Shown here: positions 14,522 through 59,585 of the stretch, in pieces | Layout: every line of letters begins with the position of its first letter | Position numbering within the stretch: the first letter of the stretch is position 1 | Notes under the pieces: model-generated | Told to the model about the DNA's origin: nothing | The model's input: the letters and a program-made list of their open reading frames with translations, nothing else | The model's database searches: none | Program-made: the position numbers and the translations under genes | NCBI GenBank assembly: GCA_963666515.2 | Contig: OY762897.2 | Span: forward strand, 1,440,001 to 1,504,000 | Reading direction: 5' to 3' | From: Candidatus Binatia bacterium | GTDB lineage: Bacteria; Desulfobacterota; Binatia; UBA9968; JAJDTQ01 | Length of the DNA stretch: 64,000 nucleotides

Positions 14522-14689
14522 TCATTCGGTATCGTCCTCGGAAGCTTCACTTGAGCGCTGGTTGAGCTGATCGAGTTCCGCCATCGACTCGAGAATTCGG
14601 AACGCGGCCTCTTCGAAAATGTCGCAATACCGGTTCTCTTTCCACTCTGGTCCATCGGGAGTGACATCCAAGAAGACGTTCCAACCCTT
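14522..14689 (-). pseudogene. 3' fragment of an HTH gene interrupted by the IS1595 element
   Basis: Removing the element restores the frame ...EWKGW-NVFLDVTPDG...DDTE*. Confidence 0.75.
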
Positions 14690-14738
14690 GGGAATTATAT
14701 ACTAGTTTACCCAAGGTGGTGGACTAGAGACGGGGGGT

Positions 14739-14990
14739 ATGCCGATGAGAATACGTTGGTGGCAAATGGGTTTGCATGTTGACGCAGAGTCCGAGGAGGA
14801 ACACGAGTCACTGGTACAGATATGGAGAGCCCTGAAAGGGTTGAACAACTTAGGATTCGTCGTTGATGATAAGGGTTGGTCTATCCGAACCGTACCAATC
14901 GGAGTTGTCGAGGCAGACGACAAGGAGGTCGTCGTTACTGTCGATGAAGCGGTTGAAGTGAAGGAAAAGCCTCTTGGCGGTGGTTCCTGA
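14739..14990 (+). CDS. Small hypothetical protein, paralog of 17635..17886
   Basis: MRIRWWQMGLHVDAESEEEHESL resembles MRVYWHYKYGLVLGPENEEEREHL. Confidence 0.5.
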   Translation: MPMRIRWWQMGLHVDAESEEEHESLVQIWRALKGLNNLGFVVDDKGWSIRTVPIGVVEADDKEVVVTVDEAVEVKEKPLGGGS

Positions 14991-15110
14991 TACGTTGATG
15001 AGCCATTGAGAATCCAGCACTTTCAGAGGGCGATAAACGGTTAGTGCCTTTCTTAGTTTAGGGTAGTCCTGTTCAGGATAGTTGAGGTCGTAGTTAATGA
15101 GGTATCTCAT
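14850..15110 (-). CDS. Small Cas2/VapD-like (ferredoxin-fold) protein
   Basis: MRYLINYDL N-terminal strand with Asp, LDSQW, IDSNDDLLV; 86 aa. Confidence 0.6.
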   Translation of the reverse strand: MRYLINYDLNYPEQDYPKLRKALTVYRPLKVLDSQWLINVSGTTAKRLFLHFNRFIDSNDDLLVVCLDNSDWYGSDRPTLIINDES

Positions 15111-15188
15111 GGTTGGCGTGTATTGCACGGGGTATGGCGTCTGTCAAGAGGGTTTTGGACGGGTCGGTTTTGCTGTGGAGAAAGGGGG

Positions 15189-15218
15189 TTGACAGGGTAG
15201 TTGGGGGTTTAGTAGGGT
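15189..15218 (+). promoter_or_regulatory. Possible sigma70 promoter upstream of structured RNA 1
   Basis: TTGACA-18-TAGGGT. Confidence 0.4.
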
Positions 15219-15224
15219 GCGAGG

Positions 15225-15358
15225 TTGCCAACGTCTTTCGGGAATCCGCTAAGTCGGGTTACCCGCTGAATAAAACAGCCTCTAGCCCGGCTCGGACTAG
15301 CTACCTGAGCCTAGGTAAATAGGTGGGGACTTCCCTCATTCCTGAGAGATGTTGGCAA
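15225..15358 (+). ncRNA. Predicted multi-branched structured RNA 1
   Basis: 21-bp closing stem whose three non-WC pairs are all G-U on the + strand; four internal hairpins. Confidence 0.55.
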
Positions 15359-15412
15359 TGGCCCGACACCAACGGGGTGTCGGCGAAATGCCTTATGAGG
15401 GAGGTACGGGGT

Positions 15413-15811
15413 ATGGCCAGATGGTTCAAGAAACTGAAGAAAGAATGGGAGACGGACTTTGAGAAGAACAATCCGCGTCAAGCCGCGACAGTGAGATGGT
15501 TGAACTCGGAACGGGCGCAAGCTGGGGTGCTTGGTTTTTTCCTTATGCCGTTGTTGTGCACTTTTTCTTGGGTGTGCTTGGTAGGTTTTCTCTGGCTGGT
15601 CGTGCTTTTGCTCAGAGGTGCGGCGAGTGGAGGAATGTCGATTCTTGAGGCGTACATATGGTATGAACTGATATTTGCTTCGATGGGCATTGCTGTTTTG
15701 GTGGGGTTGGTCCACGGATTAGCGAAATGGTTCAAGGCAACAAGGAGGCGAGCGGTTCGGGAAGAGGAGGAAATCCGTCTTGCCGTGCGACAACAGAGAA
15801 TGAATGAGTGA
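15413..15811 (+). CDS. Hypothetical membrane protein (IS passenger)
   Basis: GGGAGG RBS; two long hydrophobic segments. Confidence 0.6.
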   Translation: MARWFKKLKKEWETDFEKNNPRQAATVRWLNSERAQAGVLGFFLMPLLCTFSWVCLVGFLWLVVLLLRGAASGGMSILEAYIWYELIFASMGIAVLVGLVHGLAKWFKATRRRAVREEEEIRLAVRQQRMNE

Positions 15812-15895
15812 TTGGCCAAGTCTTGATGCGTATCATTGCTGAGGTCTGTACGGTTGTAGAGTGGCGGAACGGGGTTCCGTGTGGGAGTGAAGGCG

Positions 15896-16252
15896 ATGAA
15901 AACATACAAGATATTGGTAGGTTCGTCGGGTCGGGTTGAAGCGGTAAAACAGGGGTGGTCATGGCCAGCATTCTTCTTCAACATGTTTTGGTTGCCGGTC
16001 AAGAAGTTGTGGGGATGGAGGGCGGTTTTCTGGGGCGCTTGGGCTGCGATGGCGGTGACGACCACTTTTCTTGGCGTTCAGGGTGTTGAAGGGGCGGTGA
16101 ATATAGTGGTTGGCATTGTTCTTGGTCAGGTGGGAAATCAGATGAGGGAGAAGAACCTTGTATCGAGGGGGTTTGAGGTTCGTGATACGGTTCAGGCCGG
16201 GAATGTTGAAGCGGCTTTGGCTGCGTGGGAGAAGGGTGGTTCTGTTAGTTAG
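15896..16252 (+). CDS. DUF2628-like membrane protein
   Basis: EAVKQGWSWPAFFF...WLPVKKLW...GN..REKNLVSRGF. Confidence 0.75.
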   Translation: MKTYKILVGSSGRVEAVKQGWSWPAFFFNMFWLPVKKLWGWRAVFWGAWAAMAVTTTFLGVQGVEGAVNIVVGIVLGQVGNQMREKNLVSRGFEVRDTVQAGNVEAALAAWEKGGSVS

Positions 16253-16280
16253 GTTATATGTTGGGGGCTTGGAGTAGGGC

Positions 16281-16511
16281 GAGTTGTTTCAGTTTCGGGC
16301 ACCCTGTGCCGCTAGTCTATGCGGACGAGAAAGCAAAACGCCTTCTTTCCGTACCAACTAGCGAAAATCCTCGTCCCATTTTTCAATGTGATCGAGGATG
16401 TAAATTTCCACCGGTAGCCCGGTGGGGGTTCTGGGTAGGTCATGAGGCTACCCTCCTTTCTGGCGACGGTGCGCCCCTGAAAGGTGAGGGTGCCCGAAAC
16501 TGAAGCAATTC
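16281..16511 (+). ncRNA. Predicted multi-branched structured RNA 2
   Basis: 25-bp closing stem (two G-U pairs) enclosing four hairpins; non-coding interval. Confidence 0.65.
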
Positions 16512-16590
16512 ATACTTACTATGTAAGAGTCTGCATATGTCGGTCAGAATTTCAAGATGCCTTAATGGGCTATTTTCGTAATGGGTTCGT

Positions 16591-16619
16591 TTGACATTCA
16601 TCCAGCTTTGGGGTAAACT
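16591..16619 (+). promoter_or_regulatory. Transposase promoter overlapping an internal IR-like copy
   Basis: TTGACA-17-TAAACT; AGGAGG RBS at 16632-16637. Confidence 0.7.
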
Positions 16620-16646
16620 ACTTCCATAATTAGGAGGTAGGGAAAG

Positions 16647-17615
16647 ATGTCACAGAAGGCACCGGGCAAGGCATTTAGGCAGGGGCTGTCGATCAAGGCG
16701 TTGTTCAAGATGTTTCCTGATGACGAGACGGCGGAGAAGTGGTTTACTGAGGTCAGGTGGCCGGAAGGGGTTCGGTGTCCTAAGTGTGAGTCCGACAACA
16801 TCCAGGAGCGGGCTACGCGGAAGCCTCAGCCGTATCGTTGCCGGTCTTGCCGGAAGGACTTTTCAGTCAAAACGGATACCCTGATGCACAACTCGCCGTT
16901 GGGTTATCAGACGTGGGCGGTGGCGATTTATCTCATGACCACGGGATTGAAGGGGGTGTCGTCAATGAAGTTGCACCGGGATTTGGATGTGACGCAAAAG
17001 ACGGCGTGGCACTTGGCGATGAGAATCCGGGAGACCTTCGAGGACAAGGGGGTTGCGTTTGCTGGGCCGGTAGAGGTTGACGAGACGTATGTGGGTGGCA
17101 AGGAGAAGAACAAGCACGCGGACAAGAAGTTGAAGGCGGGGCGTGGGGCGGTGGGCAAGGCGGCGGTGGTGGGGATGAAGGACCGGGAGACTAACCGGGT
17201 GACGGCGGAGGCGGTTGAAAGCGTGGACGGGTTGACTTTGAAGGAATTCGTGCTGGACCAAGTGGTGGATGGTGCGAAGGTTTACACGGACGAGAACCGG
17301 GGGTATCAGGGGCTTCCGAACCACGAGACGGTGAATCACTCGGTCAAGGAGTACGTGGACGGGATGGCGCATACCAACGGGATTGAGTCCTTTTGGGCGG
17401 CATTGAAGCGGGGTTATCACGGTGTGTACCACAAGATGAGTGCGGAGCATCTGGACCGCTATGTTGGGGAGTTTGCGGGGCGACACAACATCAGGGACGA
17501 GGACACGGTAGTTCAGATGGCCGCTGTTGTACGAGGAATGGTCGGCAAGCGGTTGAGGTATAGGAATCTGGTTGCTTCACCGGAGAAGAAGATGCCGGGG
17601 AATGATGTCTTTTGA
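16647..17615 (+). CDS. IS1595-family (ISXO2-like) DDE transposase
   Basis: CPKC...CRSC zinc ribbon, VEVDETYVGG, VYTDE, HTNGIESFW. Confidence 0.95.
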   Translation: MSQKAPGKAFRQGLSIKALFKMFPDDETAEKWFTEVRWPEGVRCPKCESDNIQERATRKPQPYRCRSCRKDFSVKTDTLMHNSPLGYQTWAVAIYLMTTGLKGVSSMKLHRDLDVTQKTAWHLAMRIRETFEDKGVAFAGPVEVDETYVGGKEKNKHADKKLKAGRGAVGKAAVVGMKDRETNRVTAEAVESVDGLTLKEFVLDQVVDGAKVYTDENRGYQGLPNHETVNHSVKEYVDGMAHTNGIESFWAALKRGYHGVYHKMSAEHLDRYVGEFAGRHNIRDEDTVVQMAAVVRGMVGKRLRYRNLVASPEKKMPGNDVF

Positions 17616-17634
17616 GAAGGGGGGGGGTAGCCCT

Positions 17635-17886
17635 ATGCGTGTTTATTGGCATTATAAGTACGGCTTGGTATTGGGTCCAGAAAATGAAGAAGAGAGGGAG
17701 CATCTTAAAGTAGTGCAAAAGGTGTTTGAGATACCTAAAGAGGGTGAACCCGAATACGTGGGGGTAGAGAGGAGAGCGAGAGAGCACCGTTACGCGATGT
17801 ATCAGAAGCGTCAGAGGGATGAGTCAGCGGGGAAGGTCCCTGACATAGGGGGCGTCGCGGATGAGGGTGGGGGGGTGCATGACTGA
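17635..17886 (+). CDS. Small hypothetical protein, paralog of 14739..14990
   Basis: Similar N-terminus; G-rich RBS region; 83 aa. Confidence 0.5.
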   Translation: MRVYWHYKYGLVLGPENEEEREHLKVVQKVFEIPKEGEPEYVGVERRAREHRYAMYQKRQRDESAGKVPDIGGVADEGGGVHD

Positions 17887-18117
17887 TGCGTCGTCTATGG
17901 AGGTGATGATTAGTTCGATACACATTCCGTCGTCTAGGTCGAGTTTGGCAAGAATGGATCTAAGGATGGCCTTGGCTTCTTTGTCGCTTTTCACGGTCCT
18001 TTGAGACTGGAGTATGGCTTTGGCGTTGTAGTCGATCTCTACAACGGCTTTGTCGATACTGAGATAGATGGCGGTGTCGTCTATGTGAGCATCATAACTG
18101 ACAAGGTAGAGTTCCAT
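17824..18117 (-). CDS. Second small Cas2/VapD-like protein
   Basis: MELYLVSYDA, ILQSQ, LDDG..ELII; resembles 14850..15110 (both contain PTLI near the C-terminus). Confidence 0.55.
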   Translation of the reverse strand: MELYLVSYDAHIDDTAIYLSIDKAVVEIDYNAKAILQSQRTVKSDKEAKAILRSILAKLDLDDGMCIELIITSIDDASVMHPPTLIRDAPYVRDLPR

Positions 18118-18295
18118 GACATGTTCTCCCTTCAGTGCGGGGATGGGCGTTTCCGTAGCACGGGGATGGGATTAGGGTCAAGGACTGGGACTGTGCGGCG
18201 GTTGATGGGTTGGTAGCCGCTGAGGAGAAGCCTGTGGTACAGGCAGGAAGCGATGTGTTTTGATGGCAAAGGATGGACGGGTCACAGCTGGGTCT

Positions 18296-18469
18296 ATGGA
18301 TGGGAAAAGCGATGGTGTGAAGAAAAGCAAGCGGGGTCGTCCGGGGAGCCCGAAGTATCAGGAGTCCATCCGCATTGACGCCAATCCGGAAGCCGTTGCT
18401 AGGGCCATCATGAAGGGGCCACCAAAGCCGGATGGAGAGTGGCGCTATCTCAAGAACAAGGTTTGCTGA
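18296..18469 (+). CDS. Small basic protein at the right end of IS1595
   Basis: KRGRP...IDANPEAVARAIMKGPPK..EWRYL; 57 aa. Confidence 0.5.
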   Translation: MDGKSDGVKKSKRGRPGSPKYQESIRIDANPEAVARAIMKGPPKPDGEWRYLKNKVC

Positions 18470-18503
18470 TAGGCAAGGTTGGGTAAACTAGTATATAATT
18501 CCC

Positions 18504-18850
18504 CAACCCTTCCACTCCCCGCTCAAACGAAACATGAACTCCGGGTGTGCCGGTAACTTGCCATCTGCACCATCGTAGCCCTCTTTAAGCCATGTCTTGA
18601 TGATGGACTTGGCGTTTCCCAGGAAGTCCTCCAGCTCGCCTAGCATCGCCCTGATGTCGCTGCGCAGAACCAACTCCTCGAAGGGAATGTCGAGCACGGT
18701 TGCGATATTCCTGGCCGTCTTGACGAACACCGGGTGACCACTTTCCGCTCGCCTATAGGTGGCTTCCGAGATCTCCTCCAAGAAACCCTTTTCGGCGATG
18801 AGGTCCATTACTCCGTTTATACTCAACCCCCGATGTTCTCTTTCGCGGCG
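18504..18850 (-). pseudogene. Middle fragment of an XRE-HTH gene with an integrase-repeat-like motif
   Basis: RREREHRGLSI...ISEATYRRAESG...IATVLDIPFEEL; LPAHP....EWKGW. Confidence 0.7.
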
Positions 18851-59484: not shown

Positions 59485-59585
59485 GTAGGGGTCGGACCGG
59501 AGCGCTCTGTCGTCTTTCGAGCGATGGATTTCTCCGGCCCGTCCTCCGAACCGGACGTGCGACTCTCACCGCATCCGGCTCTCCA
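59485..59585 (-). mobile_element. Group II intron domains V-VI remnant
   Basis: GAGCCGGATGCGGTGAGAGTCGCACGTCCGGTTC (D5, AGC triad) followed by D6 ending CCCCTAC. Confidence 0.85.

Follow-up and report, generated by a model that had tools for sequence, protein, structure and literature searches.

A strongly folding 231-bp element in an IS1595-family transposon of Candidatus Binatia probably represents a small minus-strand gene with a fold-back mRNA

The window analysed here, a stretch of 64,000 nucleotides from an uncultured Candidatus Binatia bacterium, contains a 3,814-bp transposon of the IS1595 family (14690-18503) with perfect 25-bp ends and an 8-bp target duplication, CAACCCTT. The left terminal inverted repeat (14690-14714, plus strand) is preceded by one copy of the duplication (14682-14689) and the right one (18479-18503, minus strand) is followed by the other (18504-18511). 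The transposase, a protein of 322 aa encoded on the plus strand (16647-17615), matches both DDE_Tnp_IS1595 (2e-40) and Zn_ribbon_IS1595 (2.3e-09), and its promoter, TTGACA-17-TAAACT (16591-16619, plus strand), is conserved in the related genome G004. A contig of a further relative, X5, shares about 98% identity with the flanking sequence and passes from 14680 straight to 18503, and this empty site indicates that the 3.8-kb unit is a recently inserted transposon. The folded element that concerns us (16281-16511) lies inside this unit, about 80 nt from the transposase promoter; the terminal repeats, the target duplication and the empty site thus bear out the initial annotation, which had placed it within a DDE element of the IS1595 type and just upstream of the promoter of its transposase.

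Other parts of the transposon also carry small genes. Two minus-strand ORFs (14850-15128 and 17824-18117) flank the cargo region and are 26% identical to each other (E 0.033); the first resembles Cas2 weakly, with matches that fall below the cut-off in Pfam (E 0.0013) and reach E 1.8e-4 in PADLOC, and no CRISPR context was seen around either of them. Several genomes have sister IS1595 copies in which a plus-strand ORF of the right end (18260-18469; product ending in ...EWRYLKNKVC) is conserved; it gave no Pfam match and may be a backbone gene of this IS group. Elsewhere in the window, a group II intron catalytic domain (RF00029, 54.5 bits) was found on the minus strand at 59485-59583.

The element measures 231 bp and consists of a 181-bp segment between two 25-nt arms (16281-16305 and 16487-16511) that are 92% complementary, both mismatches being G-U pairs on the plus strand. 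Inspection of the sequence recovered every stem that had been proposed for it, and the minimum-energy fold of the plus strand contains the four hairpins GCTAGT/ACTAGC (16311-16362), ATCCTCG/CGAGGAT (16367-16399), CCACCGG/CCGGTGG (16408-16425) and GGGTAG/CTACCC (16433-16453), together with a CCTTTC/GAAAGG pairing that had been described as a small CCT-GAA-AGG loop. The energy of this fold was -130.7 kcal/mol, compared with -86.2±5.4 kcal/mol for shuffled sequences (z -8.3; none of 200 shuffles as good), and the minus-strand fold was equally exceptional against shuffles (z -8.4). The folded stretch is real, and it is present as a single copy in its own 4.67-Mb genome and is thus not a multi-copy MITE. 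It had not been recognised as a tRNA, tmRNA, SRP, RNase P or known riboswitch, and Rfam 15 gave indeed no match for 16281-16511 (cmscan, both at the gathering score and at E<=10); at E<=10, the window's copy of the element and those of G004 and G003 gave nothing relevant.

Four full members of the element were found, in G000, G003, G004 and G020, all of them from one Candidatus Binatia genus, and X5 holds a fifth copy. Among 123 genomes of the order, a set that includes the unpublished genome G106 (no member there), the element was present in four, as a single copy in each. When the whole transposon was compared with 61 relatives by BLAST, the transposase was matched widely (in 22 genomes) and the element was not; BLAST of the element against the 123 order genomes returned the arms only, twice each, in G003 and G004, both of which hold full homologues. 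In the same 123 genomes, a pattern made from the 3' arm (up to 2 mismatches) gave two-arm matches in G000, G003 and G004 only; single-arm 'GAAGCCA' matches were about as frequent as with the reversed pattern used as control, proved to be coding sequence in the cases checked and were rejected. The fourth member, G020, was added at 84 bits by a covariance model (R1) of the 5' 152 positions of the element. Two weak R1 matches in the order lie in coding sequence and were discarded, and across a sample of 151 genomes of the phylum the model found the window's own genome only. On a wider scale, the two-arm pattern gave two loci of uncultured Candidatus Binatia bacterium and one chance coding match in 185,579 species genomes, a pattern of the interior gave three chance coding matches only in the JGI metagenomes, and BLAST of the element against plasmids gave nothing.

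Comparison of the members showed that the structure is conserved with compensatory changes within the four members of this one genus. In the closing stem, three positions have changed in both arms. For the 41 internal pairs, as counted on an alignment fitted to the model and made of only four full sequences of one genus, 87% of the cells were paired and both sides had changed in 9 pairs, compared with 4.2±1.4 in shuffles (1 of 500 reached 9) and 1-3 in slid controls. Furthermore, the paired substitutions in the CCACCGG hairpin change amino acids of a minus-strand ORF (P to R, W to L), which argues that the RNA fold is maintained in addition to coding. Judging from these alignments, the helices of the element appear to be under selection. 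Folding itself leaves the strand undecided: the minus-strand energy was lower than that of the plus strand in three of the four members and the consensus fold was -72.3 kcal/mol with 59 pairs for the minus strand and -61.7 kcal/mol with 52 pairs for the plus strand, G-U versus A-C in the internal pairs of the four members was 12 versus 10, and the two G-U pairs of the window's closing stem become A-C mismatches on the minus strand, which counts against a minus-strand reading. An overall strand asymmetry is absent.

The minus strand carries a small gene. Its ORF (16312-16443), of 43 aa plus stop (MTYPEPPPGYRWKFTSSITLKNGTRIFASWYGKKAFCFLVRID), is supported by orthologues, codon pattern, a protein family and a structural model, and a Shine-Dalgarno sequence, GAAAGGAGG (16452-16460, minus strand), stands 8 nt 5' of its ATG, with a mean unpaired probability of 0.11 in the predicted minus-strand fold. 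Further upstream, CCUUUC (16479-16484, minus strand) is predicted to pair with the ribosome-binding site in an anti-Shine-Dalgarno hairpin that appears in the minus folds of all four members. The arms of the inverted repeat stand at the two ends, one at 16487-16511, which would be the 5' end of a minus-strand mini-mRNA unit and contains the three compensatory positions, and the other, the 3' arm, at 16281-16305, starting 6 nt past the stop codon; a covarying repeat of 25-30 bp therefore encloses the cistron, as it begins 26 nt before the Shine-Dalgarno sequence and ends 6 nt after the stop. A promoter-like site, GTGACA-16-AATTAT (16626-16653, minus strand), recognised by its match to the consensus, faces the small gene in the window, and no convincing minus-strand promoter was seen in G020. 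In two members another gene on this strand lies directly upstream, and the cassette begins 3 nt (G003) or 24 nt (G004) past its stop codon.

This gene is maintained throughout the members. An intact, ATG-started minus-strand ORF of 40-43 codons is present in all four, each with a Shine-Dalgarno sequence 6-9 nt 5' of the ATG (GAAAGGAGG, or GAAAGGAAG in G003) that is mostly paired in the corresponding minus fold (unpaired probability 0.11-0.22). The alignment of the four proteins (A9) has 15 invariant columns, and every indel consists of whole codons despite the diverged DNA. Differences at codon positions 1, 2 and 3, summed over the six pairs, were 79, 71 and 117, an excess at the third position, and synonymous codons are used at invariant Gly, Thr, Arg, Ser, Ala, Phe, Val and Lys residues. 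The ORF with its Shine-Dalgarno sequence, the in-frame indels, the codon pattern and the 604 relatives of the protein described below indicate that the minus-strand ORF cannot be incidental. In addition, the plus-strand tract CCTCCTTTC, which looks like the 3' tail of 16S rRNA, is the reverse complement of the Shine-Dalgarno sequence GAAAGGAGG. The idea that CCTCCTTTCT, which equals that tail, is an rRNA fragment was rejected on these grounds, as no other rRNA similarity was found and the tract is the Shine-Dalgarno complement; recurrent 19-nt matches in the genus, also considered as rRNA fragments, turned out not to be rRNA.

A profile of the four proteins matched 604 sequences at E<=0.001, 27 of them at E<=1e-10, among 1.84 billion representatives, and the identical 43-aa protein is present in this library. 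Most of the proteins among the 150 matches listed have 37-60 aa, and 40 aligned family members give the consensus PPGYxxIFRPWITLKxGxRIYASQxGKKAF. The four members of the element encode proteins with a pI of 9.9-12.0 and a GRAVY of -0.35 to 0.01; over the 43 family members examined, the longest hydrophobic run is 6. The proteins are thus basic, with a median pI of 10.3, and hydrophilic. The AlphaFold model of the 43-aa protein (pLDDT 91.3) shows a small beta sheet and one short helix. The small protein had no match in Pfam, NCBIfam or PADLOC or in a word-index protein search, a single marginal match in PHROGs (E 0.005, 18 residues covered) and nothing credible in the PDB by sequence (best E 0.05), while its model gave no better than E 3.7 in Foldseek and Z 2.5 in VIA-align when compared with PDB folds; in the ESM Atlas it matched 'hypothetical protein' clusters only (0.88). 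All these data show that the protein, of 40-43 residues, strongly basic and beta-rich, belongs to a widespread and uncharacterised family of small proteins. Homologues are annotated as CDS for hypothetical proteins in two phage genomes, and a scan of viral contigs with the profile found none. No long inverted repeat flanks the two phage homologues inspected, suggesting that the helix may be a local invention, that is, a lineage-specific addition rather than a trait of the family.

The copies of the element lie in different surroundings. In G004, it is part of a sister transposon, about 75 nt in from the left end, and the cargo of that transposon is different, comprising a HARE-HTH protein and a methyltransferase-HNH fusion; in G003, its neighbours are a tRNA gene on one side and a truncated transposase on the other; and in G020 it is beside an HTH-HipA pair, with no transposase within ±8 kb. 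The fifth copy, in X5, matches 16243-16574 with 26 differences and one gap in another arrangement, in which the element stands behind RNA 1 (see below) and a shorter gene and is followed by unrelated sequence. These contexts indicate that the element is cargo and not part of the IS backbone, a conclusion to which the lack of the cassette in most sister IS1595 copies also points; none of the other IS1595 copies has another long-stem element. As side observations, the G004 fusion protein (L073, 2432-3850) has 472 aa and joins an N6/N4 DNA methyltransferase to a C-terminal HNH nuclease, and X5 has, beside the contig with the empty site, a second one on which the Cas2-like gene, RNA 1 and the cassette of the small gene are arranged in another order.

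The initial annotation had taken the element, as RNA 2, for a diverged member of the same family as a second structured RNA of the transposon, RNA 1 (15218-15366, plus strand). Both have a long closing stem around several hairpins and occur in IS1595-type transposons of one genus, and they are adjacent in the window and in the X5 contig. Nevertheless, they are not one family: the covariance models do not cross-match, R1 was run on 17 sources and R2, the model of RNA 1, on 8, and at E<=10 neither did the former match RNA 1 nor the latter any of the four RNA 2 members. The motif said to be common to the two does exist; their gapped local alignment scores 29, a value that 4 of 2000 shuffles attain, and no other non-self match in the window is better. 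The motif, GTTGGGGGCTTGGAGTAGGGCGAGTTG (16260-16286, plus strand), recurs in the promoter/-10 region of RNA 1 (15199-15226), where its 28 nt correspond to the spacer/-10 region of that promoter, and RNA 1 and RNA 2 share it only in this window; it is retained in X5, where homology starts from 16243, and is absent upstream of the G003, G004 and G020 members. RNA 1 is a separate multi-copy 5' leader family, with R2 matches in 24 of the 123 order genomes, among them 20 of the 27 genomes of the genus. G020 has the highest copy number, 19, and the window's own genome has 6; further copies are located at 2987937, 2853150, 1233256, 4465350 and 4325979 of G000:C1. Thirty loci were examined and 26 of them aligned on the core motif; most of the copies inspected have a TTGACA-type -35 and, about 17 nt on, a -10-like hexamer just before the stem. 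Four aligned copies are followed 3' by a hairpin and then a Shine-Dalgarno sequence and an ORF, the ORFs read after four copies encode secreted or membrane proteins, and IS1595 transposase sequence is found within 1.5 kb at 7 of the 30 loci. This family has no Rfam match and is a riboswitch-like candidate. The two RNAs thus differ in that RNA 1 combines a variable stem with the conserved core GUCGGGUUACCYGCUGAAUA, occurs in many copies with its own TTGACA promoter and has a Shine-Dalgarno sequence and ORF downstream, whereas in RNA 2 it is the stem that is conserved, the copy is single and the protein is encoded on the other strand.

The explanation that we favour, with a probability of about 0.72, is that the 231 bp make up a compact cassette for one small gene, which is read on the minus strand, has a fold-back mRNA and travels as transposon cargo. 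In such a message the two arms would pair, joining the 5' end to the 3' end in a single long helix that encloses the cistron, and the upstream CCUUUC would pair with the Shine-Dalgarno sequence and mask the ribosome site. The arm helix and the masking together could produce a stable but poorly translated message, a state that would last until the helix opens or is cleaved; cleavage could come, for instance, from RNase III acting on a transcript in which the cassette follows another gene. The position of the cassette 3 or 24 nt behind another gene in G003 and G004 suggests that the helix could be a processing site that releases the mini-mRNA. The plus-strand fold would then be the mirror image of the minus-strand structure, and a plus transcript, if made, would be a full-length antisense RNA, arising by read-through from the upstream operon in the window or from promoter-like sites in two of the relatives.

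The initial annotation had instead read the element as a non-coding RNA of the plus strand. In its full form this reading would make it a stand-alone structured RNA that acts in trans or on the transposase, with the minus-strand ORF as an incidental feature, and we regard it as unlikely. Part of the evidence is certainly compatible with it: promoter-like sites lie just upstream of the plus-strand 5' arm in G004 (TTGACT-17-ATAACA) and G020 (TTGCAG-17-CTATAT), the mismatches of the window's stem are G-U on the plus strand, the element is upstream of the transposase and on the same strand in both intact transposons, and an invariant tract, CCUCCUUUC, is identical to the 3' tail of the 16S rRNA of the organism itself. 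This 16S-like tract is, however, simply the complement of the Shine-Dalgarno sequence, no terminator follows the element, and a role in relation to the transposase fits poorly with the G020 member, with none within ±8 kb, and with the X5 copy, which is not followed by one. What speaks against a plus-strand non-coding RNA is the absence of an overall strand asymmetry and the presence on the minus strand of a conserved small ORF and Shine-Dalgarno sequence, whose in-frame indels, codon-position pattern and 604 relatives in a large protein family are not incidental. A milder form, in which the plus transcript is an antisense regulator of the small gene, is compatible with the fold-back cassette.

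Two other alternatives take the arms as DNA sites. A small mobile cassette of the fold-back (MITE-like) kind, with the small ORF inside and the 25-bp arms as its terminal inverted repeats, could have nested in the transposon, since homology between G000, G003, G004 and G020 starts and stops at the arms, with unrelated flanks, and the contexts are four different ones. We consider this quite unlikely, because no target duplication is seen (the flanks AGTAGGGC and ATACTTAC differ), each of the four genomes has one copy, no cognate transposase is known and homology to X5 extends 38 and 63 nt past the arms; moreover, substitutions in one arm are matched by substitutions at the partner positions of the other in different species, a pattern that suggests base pairing and not a common binding site. 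Inverted repeats of 25 bp on either side of a short segment with a Shine-Dalgarno sequence and an ORF could also form an invertible switch, in which a recombinase flips the 181-bp segment and directs the ORF towards or away from the upstream operon, and in the window the ORF faces indeed against that operon. Such a switch seems highly improbable: no invertase or recombinase gene was found by Pfam in the ORFs scanned around three members, all five copies have one internal orientation relative to the flanks of the arms, no strand-changing joint was present at the element in the contigs of 4 runs, which drop rare variants, and the covariation inside the hairpins would be left without explanation.

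If the minus-strand fold-back cassette is the correct reading, this locus illustrates that a strongly folding, covarying palindrome can pass for a non-coding RNA while being the structured message of a small gene on the opposite strand. Control of translation by the helix and the masked Shine-Dalgarno sequence would extend the logic of type I toxin mRNAs to a soluble basic mini-protein and would offer a first way into experiments on a widespread family of small proteins (604 clusters) that has no relative in Pfam, NCBIfam or among solved structures. Going further, the cassette could be an RNA-controlled addiction or defence module on IS1595 transposons, in which a basic, nucleic-acid-binding mini-protein of this 600-cluster family is silenced by the fold-back mRNA and by a full-length plus-strand antisense RNA and is released when the balance of transcription changes or RNase III processes the message; we put this forward as a rather unlikely extension. 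In any case, an active IS1595-type transposon with varied cargo is documented here in Candidatus Binatia, an uncultured lineage.

In relation to known systems, the ends of the transposon (GGGAATTAT...) resemble those of the ISNwi1 group of the IS1595 family, whose members have passenger genes according to the ISfinder classification. The end consensus of this ISNwi1-like group is ggnnatTAT (ISfinder). Judging by titles from the literature on IS1595 and non-coding RNA, the family is not known to include an RNA or small-protein component, and in this the transposon of the window differs from it; features in common are a DDE_Tnp_IS1595 transposase with an N-terminal zinc ribbon, ends starting with GGGAATTAT and the 8-bp duplication, as well as passenger genes on either side of the transposase.

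The arms of the cassette also resemble RNase III processing stems. Such stems flank cistrons in the early mRNAs of phage T7 and in rRNA precursors. As in those cases, a long, near-perfect duplex is formed from the two sides of a unit within a longer transcript, and in G003 and G004 the cassette lies directly behind another gene. The difference is that the stem here encloses a protein-coding mini-cistron with its own hairpin masking the Shine-Dalgarno sequence.

Lastly, the closest parallel in regulation is with type I toxin mRNAs. The hok gene of plasmid R1 is expressed from a type I toxin mRNA with fold-back inhibition. The same is described for aapA1/IsoA1 of Helicobacter pylori (PMC5416894, PMC6733600). 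In type I toxin mRNAs of this kind, a long-distance helix between the 5' and 3' ends of the mRNA surrounds the cistron and an upstream complementary tract masks the ribosome site, as would be the case here; both the 5'-3' pairing and the sequestration of the Shine-Dalgarno sequence were found in silico in our element. Further similarities are the very small ORF (40-43 aa here) and the location of the gene on mobile DNA. An antisense transcript is a possibility in this case, promoter-like sites on the plus strand being present in two of the four members, G004 and G020. In contrast, classical type I toxins are small, hydrophobic and membrane-active, whereas the product here is basic and hydrophilic, has no membrane helix, has a longest hydrophobic run of 6 and is modelled as a small beta sheet. 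In addition, the 25-30 bp of the terminal helix are nearly perfect and make it much longer than that of type I toxin mRNAs, and family relatives in two phages are without it. Membership of the cassette in the type I toxin-antitoxin systems therefore fails on the nature of the protein, and the parallel lies in the fold-back logic, which by analogy could control the translation of a soluble basic mini-protein in much the same way.
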